A stretch of 64,000 nucleotides of DNA from Escherichia phage BEU50: sequence record OM632671.1. One strand, written 5' to 3'. Below are positions 8,973 through 48,352 of this stretch, in pieces (within the stretch, counting starts at the first letter, position 1; each line of letters starts with the position of its first letter). Under the pieces are notes generated by a model. That model saw only the letters and a program-made list of their open reading frames with translations, was not told where the DNA came from and did not search any database. Position numbers and translations under genes: made by a program.

Positions 8973-9554
8973 ATGGCTAGTTTAATTTTTACATATGCCG
9001 CTATGAACGCCGGTAAGTCTGCTTCATTACTTACTGCCGCACATAACTATAAAGAACGTGGCATGGGTGTATTAGTTCTTAAACCGGCTATTGATACTCG
9101 TGATTCAAAAGGTGAAATAGTCTCTCGTATTGGTATTCGTCAGGATGCCAATATAATTACAAAAGACATGGATATCTTTGAATTCTATAAATGGGCTGCA
9201 GCACAAAAGGATATTCACTGTGTATTTGTTGACGAAGCTCAGTTCTTAACTACTGAAAAGGTGTATCAACTTAGTCGTATTGTTGACGTATACAATGTGC
9301 CGGTAATGGCATATGGACTACGAACAGATTTTAAAGGTAATCTATTTGAAGGTTCTCAAGCATTAATGGCTATTGCCGATAAGCTTGTTGAACTTAAAGG
9401 TGTCTGTCATTGTGGTAAAAAGGCCACAATGGTAGCTAGAGTCACGGAAGACGGACTTCCAATTACAGATGGCAGTCAAATTGAAATTGGTGATACTGAT
9501 AGATATGTGTCATTATGCCGGAAGCATTGGAATGATTTGACAGGATTGTTATAA
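8973..9554 (+). CDS. tk: thymidine kinase
   Basis: NAGKSASLL P-loop, VDEAQFL, C-terminal Zn-ribbon cysteines. Confidence 0.95.
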   Translation: MASLIFTYAAMNAGKSASLLTAAHNYKERGMGVLVLKPAIDTRDSKGEIVSRIGIRQDANIITKDMDIFEFYKWAAAQKDIHCVFVDEAQFLTTEKVYQLSRIVDVYNVPVMAYGLRTDFKGNLFEGSQALMAIADKLVELKGVCHCGKKATMVARVTEDGLPITDGSQIEIGDTDRYVSLCRKHWNDLTGLL

Positions 9555-9557
9555 ATA
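9550..9557 (+). promoter_or_regulatory. late promoter core TATAAATA
   Basis: Exact TATAAATA octamer. Confidence 0.45.
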
Positions 9558-9581
9558 CTAATATCTAACCAAGAGGTATAT

Positions 9582-9794
9582 ATGCAGCAATTAAACGAAA
9601 GACAACTTCGTAATCTTACTGTAACCCAATTGGATGAAATCCGAAGAGAATTAGGACATTCTATTTCTCATTTAAACGAGGATATCCGTCAAACTGGTTC
9701 TAAAGCTGATTATACACGCAAGCGCAAGCTGGAAAAATACCTCACAGATGTTAAGGCCGTCCAAAGGCGAAAAATAAATACTGGCCAAAATTAA
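9582..9794 (+). CDS. hypothetical basic protein (70 aa)
   Basis: ATG after AAGAGG. Confidence 0.45.
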
Positions 9795-11886: not shown

Positions 11887-12665
11887 ATTATATCAAATGT
11901 TATGATGCAATAATTCAACGAGGAAAACTTAGAGGCAGTGATAAGTCTGAGTTGAATTATTATACTGAATCCCATCACATAATCCCTTCATGTATTGGAG
12001 GGAGTGATGACCCGAGTAATAAAGTTTTATTGACTGCCAGGGAACATTTTATCGCTCATTGGTTATTATCAAAAATTCACCCAAACTCTGAAGGATTGAT
12101 TTACGCTTACTGGGCGTTCTATAATTTAGGCGAAGATGCTTTAGGACGAAATCTTAAATTAACCTCAAGAGGCTATAAAGACGTAAGGGAAAAGTTTTCA
12201 GAAATTCACTCTAATAGAATGAAAGATATATGGGAATCACAAGAATATCGTGATAAGCGTTCAGCGACCATGAGCCTCCCTGAGATAAAGGCTAAAATGT
12301 CAGATTCTCAAATAGAGGCACAGAATAGACCTGAAGTTAAAGCAAAAATATCTACTGCTATCAAAGAGGCCTTTAAGAGAGATGATGTTAAAGAACGGCA
12401 TTCAAGAGCTGTTAAAAAGGCCCTAGATAATCCAGAAACTAAAAAGAGACAGTCTGAAGCGTCTAAAGCTAGACAACGAACTGGTAAACACTGGGAAGAT
12501 TATGATATGCTTTACGAACTTTGGATTAAATTGAATCGACCTAAGCGTGGGGCTTTCGGAACCCATATTAGTAAAATGGGTTATCCTAAATCAAATTACC
12601 AACGCTTAATATTACAGTTCATTGAAGATTATGAAAGGAAAGTGAATAATGAAAACGATTGTTAA
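11883..12665 (+). CDS. HNH homing endonuclease
   Basis: MNY N-terminus; HHIIPSCIGGSDDPSNKVLLTAREH motif; C-terminal NUMOD-like repeats. Confidence 0.8.
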   Translation: MNYIKCYDAIIQRGKLRGSDKSELNYYTESHHIIPSCIGGSDDPSNKVLLTAREHFIAHWLLSKIHPNSEGLIYAYWAFYNLGEDALGRNLKLTSRGYKDVREKFSEIHSNRMKDIWESQEYRDKRSATMSLPEIKAKMSDSQIEAQNRPEVKAKISTAIKEAFKRDDVKERHSRAVKKALDNPETKKRQSEASKARQRTGKHWEDYDMLYELWIKLNRPKRGAFGTHISKMGYPKSNYQRLILQFIEDYERKVNNENDC

Positions 12666-39829: not shown

Positions 39830-40465
39830 ATGAAAACTACTCCTATTACTATCGCTATTGACGCAATCATAAAACAAGCTTCTTCTTTGGCCGCTATGGC
39901 CAAAGTAATTAGTCAAAACCCTGCTCGTTATAATGCTATTCTAGAAACTCTTCGACGCCCGGGACTTAGTAATTATGAAAGCCGAGTAATTATTACAGGT
40001 GTTGGTAAGAATGCTAATATTGCAACTAAAGCTTCTGAGACATTTGCTTCACTCGGTATCCCGAGTATGTACTTGAACACTGGGCATTATTCTCACGGTG
40101 ATGCAGGATTCATTGCGCCTAATGATGTGTTGATTCATATTAGTCGTTCTGGTAAAACTGAAGAAATGATAGGCGTGGCTAAGCATCTTAAAATGATTCG
40201 ACCGAACGTCAAACAGATTCTGTTGCATTGTAACCCAGACATTCCACAAGAAAATGAAGCCCTTTTTGATTACTCTTTCTGTACAGGCATCGCAGTAGAG
40301 GTTGATGAGAATTCTCTGGCTCCGACTATGTCCACTACATTGTTGTTAGCGCTTATCGATACGTTTGCTATCAACCTTTCGTCTGAACGTGGATTTACCT
40401 CTAATGACTTCCTTAAGTTCCACCCTGGTGGTGCACTAGGTGCCATGTTACGAGGCGAACAATGA
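39830..40465 (+). CDS. SIS-domain sugar-phosphate isomerase, KdsD/GutQ-like arabinose-5-phosphate isomerase without CBS domains
   Basis: ITGVGKNANIATKASETFASLGIPS, HGDAGFIAPNDVLIHISRSGKTEE, LAPTMSTT...FHPGGALG parallel the KdsD SIS-domain motifs. Confidence 0.75.
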   Translation: MKTTPITIAIDAIIKQASSLAAMAKVISQNPARYNAILETLRRPGLSNYESRVIITGVGKNANIATKASETFASLGIPSMYLNTGHYSHGDAGFIAPNDVLIHISRSGKTEEMIGVAKHLKMIRPNVKQILLHCNPDIPQENEALFDYSFCTGIAVEVDENSLAPTMSTTLLLALIDTFAINLSSERGFTSNDFLKFHPGGALGAMLRGEQ

Positions 40466-40646: not shown

Positions 40647-42332
40647 ATGAAAAAAGCTGTTATTCTTGGTGCTGGACTGGCAACTCGTTTATATCCAATT
40701 ACTCACCATATTCCTAAGGTGCTTGTTAACTATAAACAAGACACTATTCTGAGCAATTTGTATACAATTTATTCTGACCTAGGCGCAGATGAAATTATTG
40801 TAGTAGTTCATTCAAAATTTGCTGAAACTGTTCGAGCTTATTGTGAGCAAGAAGGGTTCAATGTGACTATTCGTACAGTTGATGAAGCGTATGGTTCTGC
40901 TTATGCTCTTGCTAAATTACACAAAGATTTAGACGGCCATAATGTAATTGTTAACTGGTGTGATATTATTCCGGATTTTGGTTCATGGTCTTGGAATGTT
41001 AACGCAATCTATGTTAAGGGTGACGAATGTCGATATAATTTCGACGGTGAAAATATCACTAACGTAGGTTCAACAGGTGGTAATGTTGTAGGAATTTATC
41101 AGTTCAAAGACTGGGAATTCTATATGGGTTCTACTGATGAGGAAATTCATGAATACTGCAAAGGACGTGATTTCGTAGAATTCCTTTACGGCAGCGCATT
41201 CAATAAATCAGAGCTTATGAATCTAATTGATTTAGGTGATATGCCTAAACTTGAAAAAGCTCATGAAGTTCGTGAACTTAATCGTAGTTTTAATGCAGTT
41301 GAAATTGGTGAAGAAACTGTAACTAAATTCGCATTAACCGAACAGGGCCGAGCTCTTCAGAAAGATGAGATTTCGTGGTATTTGAAAGTGAAATCAGATT
41401 CAGTCCCTCAGTTAGTTTCTGTTAATGAAAATAACTTTGAAATGGAACGCATTAAAGGTAAGCCGGCATTTGAATATATTAAATCCAAATCAAGTCTTGC
41501 TCGTCCACAAATTGTTGATGCAATTTTAGATGCACTGAAATTCAGCACAGACACTTATTTTGTAAGTCCTGAAACTGTTCGTCGTGATTTCACTAAAGAA
41601 TTCTATACGAAAGTTATTGATCGTTGTGAAAGCATTCAACCATTGATTGATTCATTTGGTAAAATCACACATGTGAACTACACTAAGATTGGACGTCTGA
41701 AGCCAATGCTGAAACAAGCTTTAGAACACCTTATTCGTTATCATAACCGTTCTCAGGGACAGTACTCTGTTATTCATGGTGACCCGAACTTCAGTAATAC
41801 TATGATTACTGATAACGGCGAAGTCAAATTTATCGACCCTCGTGGATATTTTGGCGAAACCAAGATTTACGGGCCAAAATTGTACGATGAAGCTAAAGTG
41901 CTTTACGCTGTTTCAGGTTATGATGAATTCAATGCTAATCCGACCTGGGGACAGTTTACTATTGATGAAACAACTTGTAATGTGACTATTAACATCAATC
42001 CATTAGTTTACAAATATGGAAAGATGAGTTCGTTTAACGAGTATCATCATTTGGCAGTGGCAATTATCTGGATTGCATTAGGTGGTTATTTCAAGAATAA
42101 TCCACTTAAAGCGGTAGCCGCATATTATAAAGGTATGGAACTTCTGACTAAGCAATTACGTAACATGGGCCGTGTACTTCAGGACGGCTCTATTAGTTAT
42201 GACGTAGCAGAACCTGTAACGGCTACTCTGATTACAAAAAATCCTGGTAAATGGGTACTAACTGATAAAGAAACTGGTGTTTCCTATCGTCCAATCGGTG
42301 GCGATATCACTCATCAATGGGAACGAATTTGA
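40647..42332 (+). CDS. bifunctional sugar-1-phosphate nucleotidyltransferase / sugar kinase
   Basis: N-terminal ILGAGLATRLYPIT NTP-transferase motif; C-terminal VIHGDPNFSNTMITDNGEVKFIDPRGYFG kinase catalytic loop. Confidence 0.7.
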   Translation: MKKAVILGAGLATRLYPITHHIPKVLVNYKQDTILSNLYTIYSDLGADEIIVVVHSKFAETVRAYCEQEGFNVTIRTVDEAYGSAYALAKLHKDLDGHNVIVNWCDIIPDFGSWSWNVNAIYVKGDECRYNFDGENITNVGSTGGNVVGIYQFKDWEFYMGSTDEEIHEYCKGRDFVEFLYGSAFNKSELMNLIDLGDMPKLEKAHEVRELNRSFNAVEIGEETVTKFALTEQGRALQKDEISWYLKVKSDSVPQLVSVNENNFEMERIKGKPAFEYIKSKSSLARPQIVDAILDALKFSTDTYFVSPETVRRDFTKEFYTKVIDRCESIQPLIDSFGKITHVNYTKIGRLKPMLKQALEHLIRYHNRSQGQYSVIHGDPNFSNTMITDNGEVKFIDPRGYFGETKIYGPKLYDEAKVLYAVSGYDEFNANPTWGQFTIDETTCNVTININPLVYKYGKMSSFNEYHHLAVAIIWIALGGYFKNNPLKAVAAYYKGMELLTKQLRNMGRVLQDGSISYDVAEPVTATLITKNPGKWVLTDKETGVSYRPIGGDITHQWERI

Positions 42333-43078
42333 TACATTATCTCTACAAAACTACTAATCTTATAAACGGTAAAGTTTATTTAGGAATGCACTCGGCTGAA
42401 GAAGCCGAGCCTTTAGATTTATATAAAGGTTCTGGTAAATTATATAAAAAGGCTGAAAGGAAATACGGTAAGGAAAATTTTCTTAAAGAAATCATTTCCT
42501 ACCATAGCTCAAGAGAAGAATTAAAAATAGCTGAAAAGGCTCTAATAACATTAGACATAGTTAAAGACCCGAATTATTACAATCTTAAAACTGGTGGCGA
42601 AGGTGGTTCTGACGGGTTATCCCAAAGGTCCAAGGATAAAATTTCTAAGGCAAATAAAGGACGTTTAGTTGGTGATAAAAACCCAAGATGGGGTAAAACT
42701 TTGTCAGCTGAATCTATAGCTAGGGGTAAAGAAAAGCACAGGAGGTATGGTAAACCTGCATTACATGGTCTAAAGATTAATGTAGATGGCAAATATTATG
42801 AATCCTGTCGGGAAGCGGCTAAAGATTTGGGTATATCTTCTGCCACGATTCAAAAGAGAGTAAAATCGCCTAAATATCTTAATTATCGATATCAGGACGA
42901 AAGCAAAAATGCTCACAAGTCTCAAAAATTTGTTAAAATAAACGAAAATTACTATGAATCTCTTAGGATAGCTGAAAAGAAAACGGGTATTCCTAGAAAG
43001 CGTATAGCTGATAATATTAAAAATTCTATTGAAGGATATTGCTATGAAACCATTACATCTTTGCGTGGACGTCGATGA
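42317..43078 (+). CDS. GIY-YIG homing endonuclease (Seg-like)
   Basis: IHYLYKTTNLINGKVYLGMH GIY-YIG motif; C-terminal NUMOD/HTH-like region; overlaps both neighbours. Confidence 0.75.
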   Translation: MGTNLIHYLYKTTNLINGKVYLGMHSAEEAEPLDLYKGSGKLYKKAERKYGKENFLKEIISYHSSREELKIAEKALITLDIVKDPNYYNLKTGGEGGSDGLSQRSKDKISKANKGRLVGDKNPRWGKTLSAESIARGKEKHRRYGKPALHGLKINVDGKYYESCREAAKDLGISSATIQKRVKSPKYLNYRYQDESKNAHKSQKFVKINENYYESLRIAEKKTGIPRKRIADNIKNSIEGYCYETITSLRGRR

Positions 43079-43418
43079 TTGTATAACAGAGTGGAATAAC
43101 AATCGTGATTACGTGAACTTCAAACCAGACGTCGAAATGGTGTCTGCCATTAATGCCCTGTATGAGGCAGGGCATACCATAACGCTTTACACTGCTCGCG
43201 GTATGAAGTCAGTAGGTCCTGGTCGTATAGCAATTGACATTCTCCCAAGTCTGATTCAGAACTTGGCAAACATTGGCTTGAAGTACCATAATTTGCTAAC
43301 ACATAAACCAGTATATGATTGGATTATCGACGACAAAGCTATGCGTCCTGACGAATTCAAAGCTCTTATGAATAAAGGCGAATTCGAAACATTTAAATCA
43401 TATAAACCGAATCTATAA
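43044..43418 (+). CDS. HAD-superfamily phosphatase
   Basis: DVDDCIT motif I, downstream T, K and IIDD motifs; ORF-track start 43029 is TTG. Confidence 0.6.
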   Translation: MKPLHLCVDVDDCITEWNNNRDYVNFKPDVEMVSAINALYEAGHTITLYTARGMKSVGPGRIAIDILPSLIQNLANIGLKYHNLLTHKPVYDWIIDDKAMRPDEFKALMNKGEFETFKSYKPNL

Positions 43419-43464: not shown

Positions 43465-44637
43465 ATGCAAAAAAAAATGAATACTTTTAAAATCGGAACG
43501 AATTTTGATTTAGCTCTTCTTGATAAAATCGTAGAGCTCAATAAAACTTATCCTAATAGCTTGATAAACGAAGTATACGGCTCTACAAGAGAAATGGCTT
43601 TTGTAGCAGCCAGACCTGATTTTAGGCTTCCTGACGTTGACAAAAAGATGTTAGAAGATTACGTTAAACGTTGTAACGAATTAGGTATTTGCTTTAACTA
43701 TACACTCAACACGATAAATCCTGGTTCAAAAAGAGAACTAGTTGAGTGGAAGAAGAAAGCTATTCAGGATTATGTTCAGTATCTTTGGTCAATAGGCGTA
43801 TGGCGTATTACTATCGCTAACCCTGTTGTTATGGAAATTGTTCGTGAAGTCAATAAAGACATTGAGATTGAAGTTTCAACAATTCTACATGTCGATGCTG
43901 TAACTCAAATCAAATACTTGCATGACCAATATAATATCAAAAAGGTCTGCTGTGGAATTCATAAGAACCGTTCAGTTTCTTTCCTGAAGCGTGCAGCAGA
44001 GTTTTGCAATAAGAACAATATAATATTTGAAGTTCTTGTAAATGAGTTCTGTTCTAATGCTGGTAAAGGGTATACAACACATTGTAGCTATCGTGACTCT
44101 TGCTATATTTTCCATAGTACTGATGTTACAGCTGATGATGCTAAATCCTTAAACGGATATCCAATGCAGCACTGTATTAAAGCTCGTGATACAGACCCAT
44201 TTAACTGGTTGAGAACTCGTTTTGTTCGTCCTCAAGATTTGAAACTTTATAATGATATTGGTATCACTCAATTCAAAGTTTCAGGACGTACAGGTAGCAC
44301 AGACTACATTTTGAAAGTTCTTGAAGCATACGCTTCTGAAAAGTTTGAAGGTAATTTGTTAGAACTGTGGAAGCCTTTAGAGACTATTTTCACTCTTGAA
44401 AACGAAACTGAGTTTTCACATACGGTAAATATTGAAACCTCTTTGTTAGATGGCTTTTTAGAAAAAAGGTGGTTCAGACATCCAGATTTCGATTGTGCTA
44501 ATGAAATCTGCGGGACGACGTGTACATATTGTGAAAGATATTATAAACGTCAGTTATCTAAAAATGGGTTATCAGAAAATTCTATATCTATTATTGATAT
44601 AACTAACTCTGACGACGCTTTGAGGTACCCGGAATGA
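43465..44637 (+). CDS. hypothetical Cys-rich protein, possible Fe-S enzyme (390 aa)
   Basis: C-terminal CANEICGTTCTYC (CxxxCxxC within it) plus CSYRDSCYIF; family not assignable by eye. Confidence 0.5.
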   Translation: MQKKMNTFKIGTNFDLALLDKIVELNKTYPNSLINEVYGSTREMAFVAARPDFRLPDVDKKMLEDYVKRCNELGICFNYTLNTINPGSKRELVEWKKKAIQDYVQYLWSIGVWRITIANPVVMEIVREVNKDIEIEVSTILHVDAVTQIKYLHDQYNIKKVCCGIHKNRSVSFLKRAAEFCNKNNIIFEVLVNEFCSNAGKGYTTHCSYRDSCYIFHSTDVTADDAKSLNGYPMQHCIKARDTDPFNWLRTRFVRPQDLKLYNDIGITQFKVSGRTGSTDYILKVLEAYASEKFEGNLLELWKPLETIFTLENETEFSHTVNIETSLLDGFLEKRWFRHPDFDCANEICGTTCTYCERYYKRQLSKNGLSENSISIIDITNSDDALRYPE

Positions 44638-44873
44638 TTTCTAGAAAAACTTTTAATTATAAACTTAATGAAGAGATTTTGACTATGAAACTGAACACCA
44701 ACGAACAAATTCTTAAAAAGGCCCTTATGGGCCTGTTTGAAACCAAAGCGGCTAAAGTGATTAAAGAACCTATTCAATTGGAATACTATGCTGATGCATT
44801 TCTTCATAGTGTTCTTGGAAGTATCGATGCTGAAGCTTTACGTTATATCAACATTGCCAAGAAATTCAAATAA
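44634..44873 (+). CDS. hypothetical protein (79 aa)
   Basis: ATGA overlap. Confidence 0.45.
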   Translation: MISRKTFNYKLNEEILTMKLNTNEQILKKALMGLFETKAAKVIKEPIQLEYYADAFLHSVLGSIDAEALRYINIAKKFK

Positions 44874-44896
44874 GCTTTACGAATTGAGTATATAAT
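44873..44896 (+). promoter_or_regulatory. middle-promoter-like element upstream of the gene 42 homologue
   Basis: AGCTTTA box, 11 nt spacer, TATAAT 44891-44896. Confidence 0.35.
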
Positions 44897-44915
44897 AAAT
44901 TGTATTGAGGTAAAC

Positions 44916-45632
44916 ATGGGAAAACATAACACAATGAAATATATCAAAGCCGCAGATTTTCAAGCCGCATTTAAAGCAGTCAATCGTGAAATTTTAGAAA
45001 ACCCGGAATTCGTAACTGATTCTCGTATTGGGCGTTGTAATGAAATTGGGTCTATGACAGTAGTTGTTGACACTCCATCATCATTCAAAATGACCGACCC
45101 ACGTATTAACCGCATCTCTTATGAATATGCCGAAGACTTCTGGAAGTTTATGATTTCTGGTGGTACCAACGCAGAAGAAGCGTTTAAGGCATATCCTAAT
45201 GTCGCTAAATTTATTTCTAAACCAAAATCAGATGTTTTGCCGGCGAACTTCAACACTTTCTATGGTCCTCGCATTGCGGCCCAATTACCAGCTCTTCTAA
45301 AAGAACTTAAAGAGAAGCCTAACTCTCGAAGAGTTGTGTTCCAAATTCTAGAAAGTTCTGATCAGGCTTTGCTTGATTCAGACGAAACGCTTGAATATCC
45401 ATGTACTGACTCAGTGACTTATTATATTCGTGATGGTAAGCTTTATACCCACTGTCATATGCGTTCTCAGAACTGTGCTGTTGTTATGCAGTTGGATTTT
45501 TATCTCCAAGGAAAATTACTTCATTATATCGCTAACGAATGTGGTGTAGAAGTTGGTGATTATACTCATACCATGGTAAGTGCCCATGTGTTTGAACGTG
45601 ATTTTGATTATGTTAAAGGATTCCTTGACTAA
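44916..45632 (+). CDS. 42: thymidylate-synthase-family deoxypyrimidylate hydroxymethylase (gene 42-like, divergent)
   Basis: PNSRRVVFQI, CTDSVTYYIRDGKLYTHCHMRSQN and SAHVFERDF parallel T4 gp42/ThyA catalytic regions, with low overall similarity to T4 gp42 as I recall it. Confidence 0.65.
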   Translation: MGKHNTMKYIKAADFQAAFKAVNREILENPEFVTDSRIGRCNEIGSMTVVVDTPSSFKMTDPRINRISYEYAEDFWKFMISGGTNAEEAFKAYPNVAKFISKPKSDVLPANFNTFYGPRIAAQLPALLKELKEKPNSRRVVFQILESSDQALLDSDETLEYPCTDSVTYYIRDGKLYTHCHMRSQNCAVVMQLDFYLQGKLLHYIANECGVEVGDYTHTMVSAHVFERDFDYVKGFLD

Positions 45633-46531
45633 TGGCTATTTTCCGCGTACCTATTTTGAGTATGCGGTCTTATGAAACTGGACAGTATGCCATCCTTAAG
45701 GATGGCAACTTCCAACTTCATTTGCACCGTGCTAATCCAGGTGATGTGATTACATATCCACGTAATGCATCCGATATTAAAGAATGTGAACGTCTTTTCC
45801 CAGAATTTAAGTTTGTTCCATTATGGTATAAAGATAACGCGTATAACACTCGTAAATATTTCTGGTCTGAAAATGAATTTGTGGTTGATTCATTAATCGC
45901 TTATTATGATTGTGATTTTCTAATCACAGATATCACTGGATACGACGGCGCTTTTGATGTAGAATTCAATTTCAATATCACTGCAGACCCTAATAAACCA
46001 CGTTTTTATATTGACGAATTCTTAAAAACCGACATGTTGTCGGTTAATCGTTCAATCCAAACAACTGTGTTGAATAAACGTCAAAAGGAAGTGCTGGTTA
46101 ACGCAGGTGCAGATGGTAATAAGATTATCATAACCCAGAAAGTTATACGTCCTTCCATCATGCAGCGTCTTGTAGGTGATTTAGCTCCTATTCATCTAGA
46201 TGGTATTTTTCATCCATTTCGAATTAGTGACCCGTGCTATCGGTTTGAACAAGTGGTTGAATGTGCAATTCAATTAGGCCAACCGCTTTATATAACCGAT
46301 CCAAATAATAGCTTCGACAGAAATAAGTATCCTGAAGAAGCGCTGATTCGAATTTTTAAACCAACTAAAACTGAGTACTATCAAATTCTTAAAGGACGTC
46401 CGAAGATTCAATATTTCGAAAATCCTGAAGAAGTATTCCATCCAGGTCTTGGTGAGTTCATCTACTTTAATGCTTTAATTTCTTCACCGTATAATATACC
46501 TAAATACGAAGATGTCGTAATCGAGGAATAA
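45632..46531 (+). CDS. hypothetical protein in the beta-glucosyltransferase position (299 aa); candidate DNA sugar transferase
   Basis: No recognisable motif; placement between gene 42 and uvsX only. Confidence 0.45.
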   Translation: MAIFRVPILSMRSYETGQYAILKDGNFQLHLHRANPGDVITYPRNASDIKECERLFPEFKFVPLWYKDNAYNTRKYFWSENEFVVDSLIAYYDCDFLITDITGYDGAFDVEFNFNITADPNKPRFYIDEFLKTDMLSVNRSIQTTVLNKRQKEVLVNAGADGNKIIITQKVIRPSIMQRLVGDLAPIHLDGIFHPFRISDPCYRFEQVVECAIQLGQPLYITDPNNSFDRNKYPEEALIRIFKPTKTEYYQILKGRPKIQYFENPEEVFHPGLGEFIYFNALISSPYNIPKYEDVVIEE

Positions 46532-46532
46532 A

Positions 46533-47081
46533 ATGGCTAAAATTATTTTAGTAGATGGCCCGGATAATGCTGGTAAAACAACTTTCATTAATGACATAAT
46601 GGAAATTAGTGAAAGATATGTAAAGATTGATTTCCCTAAACGAACAGTTGATGGACGTTTCGATGTTAAGTCTCGAAATGAAGTTGGCTGTTTCGAAACG
46701 ATGTTGAATTATTTAGACCCTACTAAGATTTATCTGTTAGACCGTGGATATATTAGTAACTGGGTTTACGGACGTATTCGACAAGATGCGGACTCTGTTC
46801 TTGACGTTTATGAACAGGATTATGTTCGTCTTTGCCAAAACCATGATGTGTTCACAATTATTTTAACACGTAACGAAATGACTGAAAGTTTTGAAGACGA
46901 CCTTATTACTTTGTCTTCATTCGGTTTTAATACAGTCATTTCACATTTTGAAGAGTTTGCAATTCATAACAAAATCCAAACGTATCAATTACTTAATCAT
47001 GATGGTGCTAACAAAGTTATAGGATTTAATGCAAGCGAACGTAATGTTTTGATTACAGAAATCATCAAATGGGCTCGTTAA
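46533..47081 (+). CDS. P-loop nucleotide kinase (thymidylate-kinase-like)
   Basis: Walker A VDGPDNAGKTT and DRGY (DRY-like) motif. Confidence 0.6.
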   Translation: MAKIILVDGPDNAGKTTFINDIMEISERYVKIDFPKRTVDGRFDVKSRNEVGCFETMLNYLDPTKIYLLDRGYISNWVYGRIRQDADSVLDVYEQDYVRLCQNHDVFTIILTRNEMTESFEDDLITLSSFGFNTVISHFEEFAIHNKIQTYQLLNHDGANKVIGFNASERNVLITEIIKWAR

Positions 47082-47101
47082 GAGCCATTTAAAGTTTTAA
47101 A

Positions 47102-47126
47102 TGCTGTATAACCCTTAGTATATAAT
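47102..47126 (+). promoter_or_regulatory. middle-promoter-like element upstream of uvsX
   Basis: TGCTGTA box, 12 nt, TATAAT 47121-47126. Confidence 0.35.
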
Positions 47127-47179
47127 CATCTTATCTTTTAAACATGAGTAAAATATAATGATGCCTATGGAAAAATACA

Positions 47180-48352
47180 ATGTCTGATTTAAAATCTCGT
47201 CTGATTAAAGCTTCTACTTCTAAAATGACTGCAGACTTGACTAAGTCTAAGCTGTTTAATAATCGTGATGAAGTCCCTACTCGTATTCCGATGTTGAATA
47301 TTGCATTAGGTGGTGCACTGAATGCAGGGTTGCAATCAGGCTTAACTATTTTTGCTGCTCCTTCTAAACACTTTAAAACGTTGTTTGGGCTGACTATGGT
47401 TGCAGCGTATATGAAGAAATATAAAGATGCAATCTGTTTGTTTTATGACTCAGAATTCGGTGCTTCAGAATCTTATTTTCGTTCAATGGGTGTTGATTTA
47501 GACCGTGTAGTTCATACTCCGATTCAATCTGTCGAACAACTTAAAGTCGATATGACTAATCAGCTTGACGCTATTGAACGCGGTGATAAAGTTATTATCT
47601 TTATTGACTCGATTGGTAATACTGCATCTAAGAAAGAAACCGAAGATGCATTGAACGAGAAAGTTGTAGGTGATATGTCTCGTGCTAAGGCACTTAAATC
47701 TCTGTTCCGCATTGTGACTCCTTATCTGACTATTAAAGATATTCCATGTGTTGCAATTAACCATACAGCAATGGAAATCGGCGGATTGTATCCTAAAGAG
47801 ATTATGGGCGGTGGTACAGGTATTCTTTATTCTGCCAACACGGTATTTTTTATCTCTAAACGTCAGGTTAAAGAAGGTACAGAATTGACCGGTTATGACT
47901 TCACGTTGAAAGCAGAAAAATCTCGCACAGTTAAAGAGAAATCTACTTTCCCGATCACGGTTAATTTTGATGGCGGTATTGACCCATTCAGTGGCTTGTT
48001 AGAAATGGCAACTGAAATTGGTTTTGTAGTTAAGCCTAAAGCCGGTTGGTATGCTCGCGAATTCCTTGACGAAGAAACAGGTGAAATGATTCGTGAAGAA
48101 AAATCATGGCGTGCTAAAGCTACTGATTGTGTAGAATTCTGGGGACCTTTGTTTAAACACAAACCTTTCCGAGATGCAATTGAAACTAAATATAAACTAG
48201 GTGCTATCTCTTCTATTAAAGAAGTTGATGACGCTGTTAATGACCTTATTAATTGCAAAGCAACAACTAAAGTTCCGGTTAAAACTTCTGATGCTCCGTC
48301 TGCAGCAGATATAGAAAACGACCTTGACGAAATGGAAGATTTCGATGAATAA
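47180..48352 (+). CDS. uvsX: RecA-like recombinase UvsX
   Basis: 390 aa; RecA-fold Walker motifs; acidic C-terminus. Confidence 0.95.
   Translation: MSDLKSRLIKASTSKMTADLTKSKLFNNRDEVPTRIPMLNIALGGALNAGLQSGLTIFAAPSKHFKTLFGLTMVAAYMKKYKDAICLFYDSEFGASESYFRSMGVDLDRVVHTPIQSVEQLKVDMTNQLDAIERGDKVIIFIDSIGNTASKKETEDALNEKVVGDMSRAKALKSLFRIVTPYLTIKDIPCVAINHTAMEIGGLYPKEIMGGGTGILYSANTVFFISKRQVKEGTELTGYDFTLKAEKSRTVKEKSTFPITVNFDGGIDPFSGLLEMATEIGFVVKPKAGWYAREFLDEETGEMIREEKSWRAKATDCVEFWGPLFKHKPFRDAIETKYKLGAISSIKEVDDAVNDLINCKATTKVPVKTSDAPSAADIENDLDEMEDFDE

Follow-up and report, generated by a model that had tools for sequence, protein, structure and literature searches.

Positions 44916-47081 of the 64,000-nucleotide stretch of Escherichia phage BEU50 analysed here (record OM632671.1; the whole stretch is referred to as the window) probably form the core of a cytosine-replacement module of an RB69-like Mosigvirus. 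Three closely packed genes encode a thymidylate synthase (TS) homolog, a glycosyltransferase (GT) of 299 amino acids and a P-loop kinase of 182 amino acids. In view of its fold, its synteny and a published prediction, the 299-residue protein is very probably the enzyme that adds the first arabinose to 5-hydroxycytosine (5hoC). For the kinase, which has a thymidylate kinase (TMPK) fold, we put the chance at about one in two that it would serve as the module's own kinase for 5-hydroxy-deoxycytidine monophosphate (5-hydroxy-dCMP, 5hodCMP), alongside a homolog of T4 gp1. The three genes and the downstream neighbor are as follows.

44916..45632, plus strand: 5-hydroxy-dCMP synthase with a thymidylate-synthase fold, flavin-dependent, RB69 gp48 equivalent (Pfam PF00303, E 2.3e-15; PDB identity; motif)
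45632..46531, plus strand: compact GT-B glycosyltransferase, 299 amino acids, the RB69 gp46:47 protein, putative alpha-arabinofuranosyltransferase 1 with the 5-OH of 5-hydroxycytosine as acceptor
46533..47081, plus strand: P-loop kinase, 182 amino acids, thymidylate-kinase fold, the RB69 gp45 protein, probable kinase for a deoxypyrimidine monophosphate within the 5-hydroxycytosine module
47180-48352: UvsX (PF21134, E 1e-38)

The two open reading frames (ORFs) picked out by a first-pass annotation of this DNA were confirmed as coding, at 45632-46531 and 46533-47081, both on the plus strand and starting with ATG; the kinase motifs it had recognized lie at residues 9-17 (GPDNAGKTT) and 70-73 (DRGY). 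The synthase stop codon overlaps the GT start (TAATG), and the GT stop and the kinase ATG are one base apart. The proposal that the pair occupies the slot of the T4 beta-glucosyltransferase gene (b-gt) also holds: the equivalent interval of T4 reads 42, b-gt, segA, uvsX, and the order found here is synthase, 299-residue GT gene, kinase, uvsX, with genes 40 and 41 following. The 1450-base stretch is matched at 95-99% identity by 153 phage records, and the named ones are all Mosigvirus or RB69-like. In the phage collection the 299-residue family is present in 348 records and the kinase family in 343, with an identical distribution over genera. Chance ORFs or an artefact were considered and rejected, since over 340 phage genomes encode each protein. 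The reference record of RB69 divides the 299-residue ORF between ORF047c and ORF046c and lists the kinase as RB69p045, "thymidylate kinase", a label it carries in many of the matching records. NRG-P0074 is among the records with an unsplit gene, which is annotated there as "glycosyltransferase".

Judged by its sequence, the upstream "gene 42" makes 5-hydroxy-dCMP and is not a dCMP hydroxymethylase. The encoded protein is 97% identical to PDB entries 9iqc, 9ir2 and 9iqu. When it is aligned to the S. aureus TS (4dq1), N stands at the D169 position and D at the N177 position (E. coli ThyA numbering), and the motif reads MRSQN...D versus MRSND...D in T4 gp42. For RB69 gp48, flavin-dependent synthesis of 5-hydroxy-dCMP has been demonstrated (Lee et al., NAR 2026, PMC13326640), and D169N is diagnostic for this activity according to the same paper. 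It is the D169N/N177D signature together with the identity to 9iqc that leads to 5-hydroxy-dCMP, not hydroxymethyl-dCMP, as the predicted product. Both features speak against the 5-hydroxymethylcytosine (hmC) framework in which the first-pass annotation had placed the locus, and so does the base itself, which is an arabinofuranose (Araf) joined through oxygen to C5 of cytosine. For RB69 it has been described as beta-D-Araf-(1-3)-alpha-D-Araf-O-5-deoxycytidine, without a hydroxymethyl bridge (PMC13326640), and the older assignment as "arabinosyl-hmC" is called erroneous in a later paper (PMC13390438).

The 299-residue protein had been put forward as a candidate DNA sugar transferase that lacked any recognizable motif, with its fold still to be checked. 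Its sequence is indeed uninformative: no Pfam family was matched at E up to 0.1, including Glycos_transf_1 and Glyco_transf_4, no relevant NCBIfam model was hit and no match was found among PDB sequences. The sole sequence-family match is phrog_3891 (E 5.8e-156), a family of unknown function. The structure is more telling. From 137 collected homologs 39 were aligned, and the structure was predicted with a mean local confidence (pLDDT) of 94.4 and a predicted template modelling score (pTM) of 0.88. The model is of the GT-B type, with two Rossmann-like domains and an interdomain cleft. The best structural matches are all glycosyltransferases, and they include the following, given with their scores.

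6kih, sucrose-phosphate synthase: 17.7, with 269 residues aligned
6n1x, BshA: 16.8
2gej, PimA: 15.7
9iqz, phage HY126 glycosyltransferase: 14.3
1y6f, T4 alpha-glucosyltransferase: 13.3

The transferase proposal thus stands, and the orthologues in RB69 (gp46:47) and DLP3 have been published as a putative "arabinosyltransferase 1" that would attach the first, alpha-linked arabinose to 5hoC (PMC13326640). The RB69 counterpart was recovered by tblastn in two pieces with 98% identity. In a Foldseek comparison with the BFVD models, that of ORF047c fits onto the first 181 residues and that of ORF046c onto the last 116. The family alignment was inspected for residues by which the C-terminal domain might bind the donor (Arg/Lys for the diphosphate, Glu of EX7E): R197, K246 and the H270-P271-G272 stretch do not vary, and 87% of the sequences keep E275. 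The protein examined here has the spacing of an EX7E motif (E267-x7-E275), but E267 is not conserved across the family. A member of the GT family lies directly 3' of a D169N synthase gene in the window, in phage Thanatos, in Klebsiella phage Marfa and in the metagenomic contig L014. Isoelectric points (9.05 for T4 b-gt, 6.33 for RB69 gp3 and 5.30 for the 299-residue GT) do not discriminate GTs that act on DNA.

A highly diverged b-gt homolog was considered for this position and rejected, since the fold neighbors are GT4-type enzymes and the T4 alpha-glucosyltransferase, not the beta enzyme. The latter was outside the top 60 structural matches of the model, and blastp detected no similarity of the 299-residue protein to T4 beta-glucosyltransferase or RB69 gp3. 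A separate observation concerns Serratia phage Muldoon, where a 308-residue protein (BFVD A0A5P8PH66) is only 18% identical to the 299-residue GT but shares its compact GT-B architecture (Foldseek E 1.6e-16, template modelling score 0.74). Possibly this is a distant member of the group that uses another sugar or acts on another base.

The kinase is thymidylate-kinase-like, as had been suggested from its P-loop and DRGY motifs. It has the TMPK fold and carries GPDNAGKTT, FPKR and DRGY motifs, and in the family profile the region from the P-loop through FPKR aligns to the vaccinia, yeast and human enzymes. Invariant in 17 homologs are G9, D11, N12, A13, G14, K15 and T16, the F34-P35-K36 stretch and D70-R71. 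In TMPK structures the P-loop Asp touches the deoxyribose 3'-OH, and the arginines of the FPxR and DR motifs hold the phosphate of the deoxynucleoside monophosphate (dNMP). Because these dNMP-binding motifs are kept, the sequence points to a free deoxypyrimidine monophosphate rather than DNA as the substrate. It is plausible that this is a modified nucleotide, with 5-hydroxy-dCMP as the most likely one. Lee et al. name gp45 only as "nucleotide kinase" and assign it no pathway step (PMC13326640). In the legend of Figure 3 of a preprint of June 2025 (bioRxiv 10.1101/2025.06.16.659550), DLP3 gp78 and RB69 gp45 are the "cognate dNMP kinases" co-expressed with the synthase, and the published version (PMC13326640) names gp169 and gp159, homologs of T4 gp1, instead of gp78 and gp45.

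Relatives of the kinase in other phages connect it to the synthase. When the family profile was run against 1.8 billion representatives, 313 relatives came up, of which 44 were below E 1e-10, and seven of these were inspected. Wherever enough flanking DNA was present, a TS homolog was found within three genes of the kinase relative, and it always carried N169 and D177. Metagenomic contexts with this combination are L006, L009/L010, L011, L012/L013, L014 and L016/L017. Members of the 299-residue GT family were found beside the kinase relative in four contigs, with the following E values against the family profile.

L014: E 9e-120
L012: E 5e-111
L011: E 3e-30
L007: E 5e-9

A Glyco_transf_4-like GT is in this place in L009 and L016. 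In Thanatos the kinase gene, whose product is 44% identical to that of BEU50, directly follows those of the synthase and the GT. In Marfa (L004, 4298-9900) the kinase gene is located between those of a HAD phosphatase and a U32-like protein and does not follow the GT, which indicates that the order of the module is not fixed. Between its polymerase gene and that of the bifunctional sugar-nucleotide enzyme, the Marfa cluster also has no gene for arabinose-5-phosphate isomerase. Several of the contigs with kinase relatives are not T4-like and encode a family A polymerase (PolA-type). The linkage of the kinase to N169 synthases across unrelated lineages suggests that it is part of a portable unit of synthase, kinase and transferase that goes with 5-hydroxycytosine, and not with arabinose specifically or with T4-type nucleotide metabolism.

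The kinase relatives of the PolA-type contigs are fusion proteins that end in an MBD4-like DNA glycosylase domain of the HhH-GPD type; this domain matches MBD4 structures at E 1e-9 and retains the catalytic-Asp position in GLGKYAxDS. The fusion proteins are 314-357 residues long and are encoded at these positions.

L006: 8001-9074
L009: 6205-7173
L016: 863-1807
L007: 127-1092

They adjoin D169N TS homologs and GT4-like transferases. At a guess, such a fusion could serve the repair of 5-hydroxyuracil:G pairs that arise by deamination of 5-hydroxycytosine. Other genes were noted around the fusions. In L006 an NADPH-dependent flavin mononucleotide (FMN) reductase gene (9068-9613; PF03358, E 7.9e-12) is found right after the kinase fusion, two genes 3' of the D169N TS homolog, and is followed by genes for a SIS isomerase and an AfhE-like protein of 624 residues; a role in supplying reduced flavin for the hydroxylase would fit. 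The L006 TS homolog itself has 394 residues, with an additional N-terminal domain of about 150. After the GT4-like transferase gene, L009 (8385-9377) and L016 (2928-3866) contain a radical SAM/SPASM gene, which suggests a further, different modification of sugar or base.

In view of the above, the following route is the most probable. The TS homolog would hydroxylate dCMP to 5-hydroxy-dCMP, as shown for the RB69 orthologue, after which the cluster kinase, alongside the gp1 homolog, would convert this to the diphosphate. Host nucleoside diphosphate kinase would form the triphosphate, which the phage polymerase would incorporate. In a separate branch, an isomerase, a bifunctional kinase/uridylyltransferase and a HAD phosphatase would produce uridine diphosphate (UDP)-arabinofuranose. 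From this donor the 299-residue GT-B enzyme would place the first arabinofuranose on the 5-OH of 5-hydroxycytosine, and the next sugar would be attached by a homolog of RB69 gp3, a second transferase encoded outside the window. The resulting DNA would be resistant to restriction and CRISPR nucleases.

Several points weigh against this route. When single DLP3 GTs were supplied with UDP-Araf or UDP-arabinopyranose (UDP-Arap), no arabinosylation of 5hoC DNA was detected (PMC13326640), and enzymatic activity of this GT family is not shown in the accessible literature. The 299-residue GT falls below all sequence-family models of Pfam and NCBIfam. Its Thanatos homolog TH1_063, 47% identical, is reported to form UDP-xylose in vitro from UTP and xylose-1-phosphate (PMC12838424). 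The kinase has no PF02223 match and reaches 16.0 bits with TIGR00041, for which the cutoff is 83.25. Moreover, RB69 gp159, the gp1 homolog, turns 5hodCMP into the diphosphate 5hodCDP in vitro (PMC13326640), so that the cluster kinase may be redundant or do something else.

The last point leads to the alternative that survives best, although we still regard it as unlikely: the GT would arabinosylate free 5hodCMP before replication, the kinase would be specialized for the bulky Araf-5hodCMP that gp1-type kinases cannot take, and the polymerase would insert the glycosylated deoxynucleoside triphosphate (dNTP). This would give the kinase an obvious task, which it otherwise lacks when a gp1 homolog already accepts 5hodCMP. 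It would also suit the retained dNMP-binding motifs, the tight packing of the synthase, GT and kinase genes and the recurrence of the same trio in unrelated phage lineages. The inactivity of single GTs on 5hoC DNA points the same way, and the experiments of Lee et al. cannot tell addition of the first arabinose to the mononucleotide from addition to DNA (PMC13326640). However, the characterized phage DNA glycosylations are all post-replicative, as is well established and stated in the introduction of PMC13326640, and the later arabinoses go onto DNA (PMC13326640). In Marfa the kinase gene is not beside that of the GT, and acceptance of an arabinosylated dNTP by the polymerase is an assumption only.

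Slightly less probable still is an ordinary auxiliary role, in which the kinase would phosphorylate dTMP or dNMPs to add to the canonical supply and would have no specific part in modification. Its TMPK fold and motifs would suit such a function, as would the thymidylate kinase annotation in many records. However, its linkage to N169 synthases and GTs was strict, in 9/9 contexts, PolA-type phages included. In T4 no such gene is present between 42 and uvsX, and the dTMP-kinase equivalog model failed by a wide distance (16 versus 83 bits).

The Thanatos result raises the question whether the 299-residue protein might be no transferase but a UDP-pentose pyrophosphorylase producing the sugar donor, and we consider this quite improbable. 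The reported formation of UDP-xylose from UTP and xylose-1-phosphate by TH1_063 speaks for it (PMC12838424). The enzyme in that assay was a His-tagged protein from E. coli, the only control mentioned in the accessible text is one without enzyme, and the transfer test was negative because the acceptors contained unmodified cytosine. The fold is GT-B, not that of a nucleotidyltransferase, and the cluster already encodes a protein with an NTP-transferase domain, whose HY126 homolog AfhE is reported, by way of a citation in PMC13326640, to form UDP-arabinose. The GT-B fold and the dedicated nucleotidyltransferase of the cluster together make pyrophosphorylase activity unlikely as the physiological role.

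That the kinase phosphorylates a modified base within DNA, as the 5-hmdU DNA kinase (5-HMUDK) does in thymidine hypermodification, can be nearly dismissed: fusion of distant relatives to an MBD4-like base-flipping DNA glycosylase domain places at least those near DNA, but the kinase keeps the dNMP motifs of free-nucleotide kinases, and the RB69-type base has no hydroxymethyl group, so that a 5-HMUDK-like reaction on hmC in DNA has no substrate.

We thus favor a 5-hydroxycytosine module in which the kinase acts on 5-hydroxy-dCMP and the 299-residue GT adds the first arabinose, and the surrounding genes can be described on this basis. The modification cluster of RB69 is given as gp45-gp55 (PMC13326640). 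Its remaining members have the following counterparts in the window.

39830..40465, plus strand: arabinose-5-phosphate isomerase (SIS), RB69 gp55 equivalent, first sugar-donor step (NRG-P0074 and RB69 annotation; role from PMC13326640)
40647..42332, plus strand: bifunctional protein with an N-terminal sugar-1-phosphate nucleotidyltransferase and a C-terminal APH/choline-kinase-like kinase, RB69 gp52:53 equivalent, AfhE-like
43029..43418, plus strand: HAD-type phosphatase, RB69 gp51 equivalent, AfhF-like (phrog_1238, E 1.3e-41; annotated equivalents)
43465..44637, plus strand: peptidase-U32-like protein, 390 amino acids, RB69 gp50 (PF01136, E 7.5e-11; phrog_5757)
44634..44873, plus strand: conserved protein of 79 amino acids, RB69 gp49 (phrog_8601, E 6.7e-51)

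The isomerase, the bifunctional enzyme and the phosphatase supply UDP-arabinofuranose, with roles taken from PMC13326640; in that paper the AfhF-like phosphatase converts Araf-1,5-P2 to Araf-1-P. The bifunctional protein matches Pfam NTP_transferase (E 8.5e-10), kinase families weakly, and phrog_4098. The true start of the phosphatase is probably an internal ATG near 43044. Between the genes of the bifunctional enzyme and the phosphatase, and overlapping both, is a gene for a GIY-YIG homing endonuclease of 253 amino acids (42317-43078), which is present in NRG-P0074 and not in RB69. The U32 family includes the O2-independent hydroxylases UbiU and UbiV. Comparison of Thanatos TH1_065 with the UbiU model gave a negligible match (E 0.049, 12.8 bits versus a 440-bit cutoff). 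For the U32-like protein Lee et al. suggest only a "sugar or heterocycle reductase" (PMC13326640).

Possible transcription signals were searched with a pattern modelled on the T4 middle-promoter consensus (GCT[TG][TC]A, 10-13 nucleotides, TA[TAC]A[AT]T). It has 12 plus-strand matches in the window, about 12-fold more than the one or so expected from mononucleotide shuffles. They lie at 12138, 12509, 16062, 21172, 28815, 32345, 33651, 40595, 44874, 46472, 47103 and 56186. Several are immediately 5' of gene starts, including those of the UDP-arabinose gene, the synthase, the kinase and uvsX, and three concern the module directly.

44874..44896, plus strand: GCTTTA, 11 nucleotides, TATAAT; 20 nucleotides 5' of the synthase ATG
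46472..46495, plus strand: within the 3' end of the GT gene, about 40 nucleotides 5' of the kinase ATG
47103, plus strand: ahead of uvsX

From the pattern these sites may function as middle promoters. Sigma-70 promoters and terminators were not enriched over shuffles in a scan of 44600-47300.

Treating the GT and kinase as an unknown pair is outdated, as the cluster was already described in papers of 2025-2026 (Lee et al., PMC13326640). What was published is a putative first arabinose-adding enzyme and its companion nucleotide kinase, so both genes were known. New here are the linkage of the kinase to D169N synthases in six further metagenomic contexts, usually with an adjacent glycosyltransferase, and the fusions of the kinase to an MBD4-like glycosylase in PolA-type phage contigs. 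Mahler et al. 2025 and He et al. 2026 are also said to have identified these genes and placed them in the pathway. In a large group of T4-like phages that is in use for therapy, arabinosylated 5-hydroxycytosine gives protection against restriction enzymes, against some CRISPR systems and against DNA glycosylases. The linkage and the fusions are starting points for work on the kinase substrate and on the timing of the first sugar, before or after replication; if it is added before, pre-replicative glycosylation of DNA would be seen here for the first time.

Comparison with known systems places the module as follows. From RB69 gp46:47 and DLP3 gp79, the "arabinosyltransferase 1" of Lee et al. 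(PMC13326640), the 299-residue GT shows no substantive difference, except that the ORF is intact here and split in the RB69 record. The transferase named Aat by Mahler et al. 2025 may be a further counterpart. With T4 beta-glucosyltransferase it shares the slot between a TS homolog and uvsX, the GT-B type and the predicted transfer from a UDP-sugar to a 5-substituted cytosine, but neither sequence homology nor close structural homology was detected. GT4-type GT-B enzymes (6kih, 6n1x, 2gej) are only 7-12% identical and 60-100 residues longer; the 299-residue protein matches neither Glycos_transf_1 nor Glyco_transf_4, and its family does not conserve the first Glu of EX7E. The kinase is 7-19% identical to type I thymidylate kinases (vaccinia 2v54, human, yeast), fails PF02223 and TIGR00041 and has Asn at the position of the basic P-loop residue, and its gene is linked to a dCMP hydroxylase, not to dTMP synthesis, which points to a cytosine derivative rather than dTMP as substrate. 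With T4 gp1 and RB69 gp159 it would have in common that it is a phage nucleotide kinase for modified dCMP. Like 5-HMUDK it is a P-loop kinase in a phage base-modification cluster, but 5-HMUDK, by its description, turns a hydroxymethyl group in DNA into a leaving group, whereas the cluster kinase has nucleotide-kinase motifs and is encoded with a base that offers no such group.

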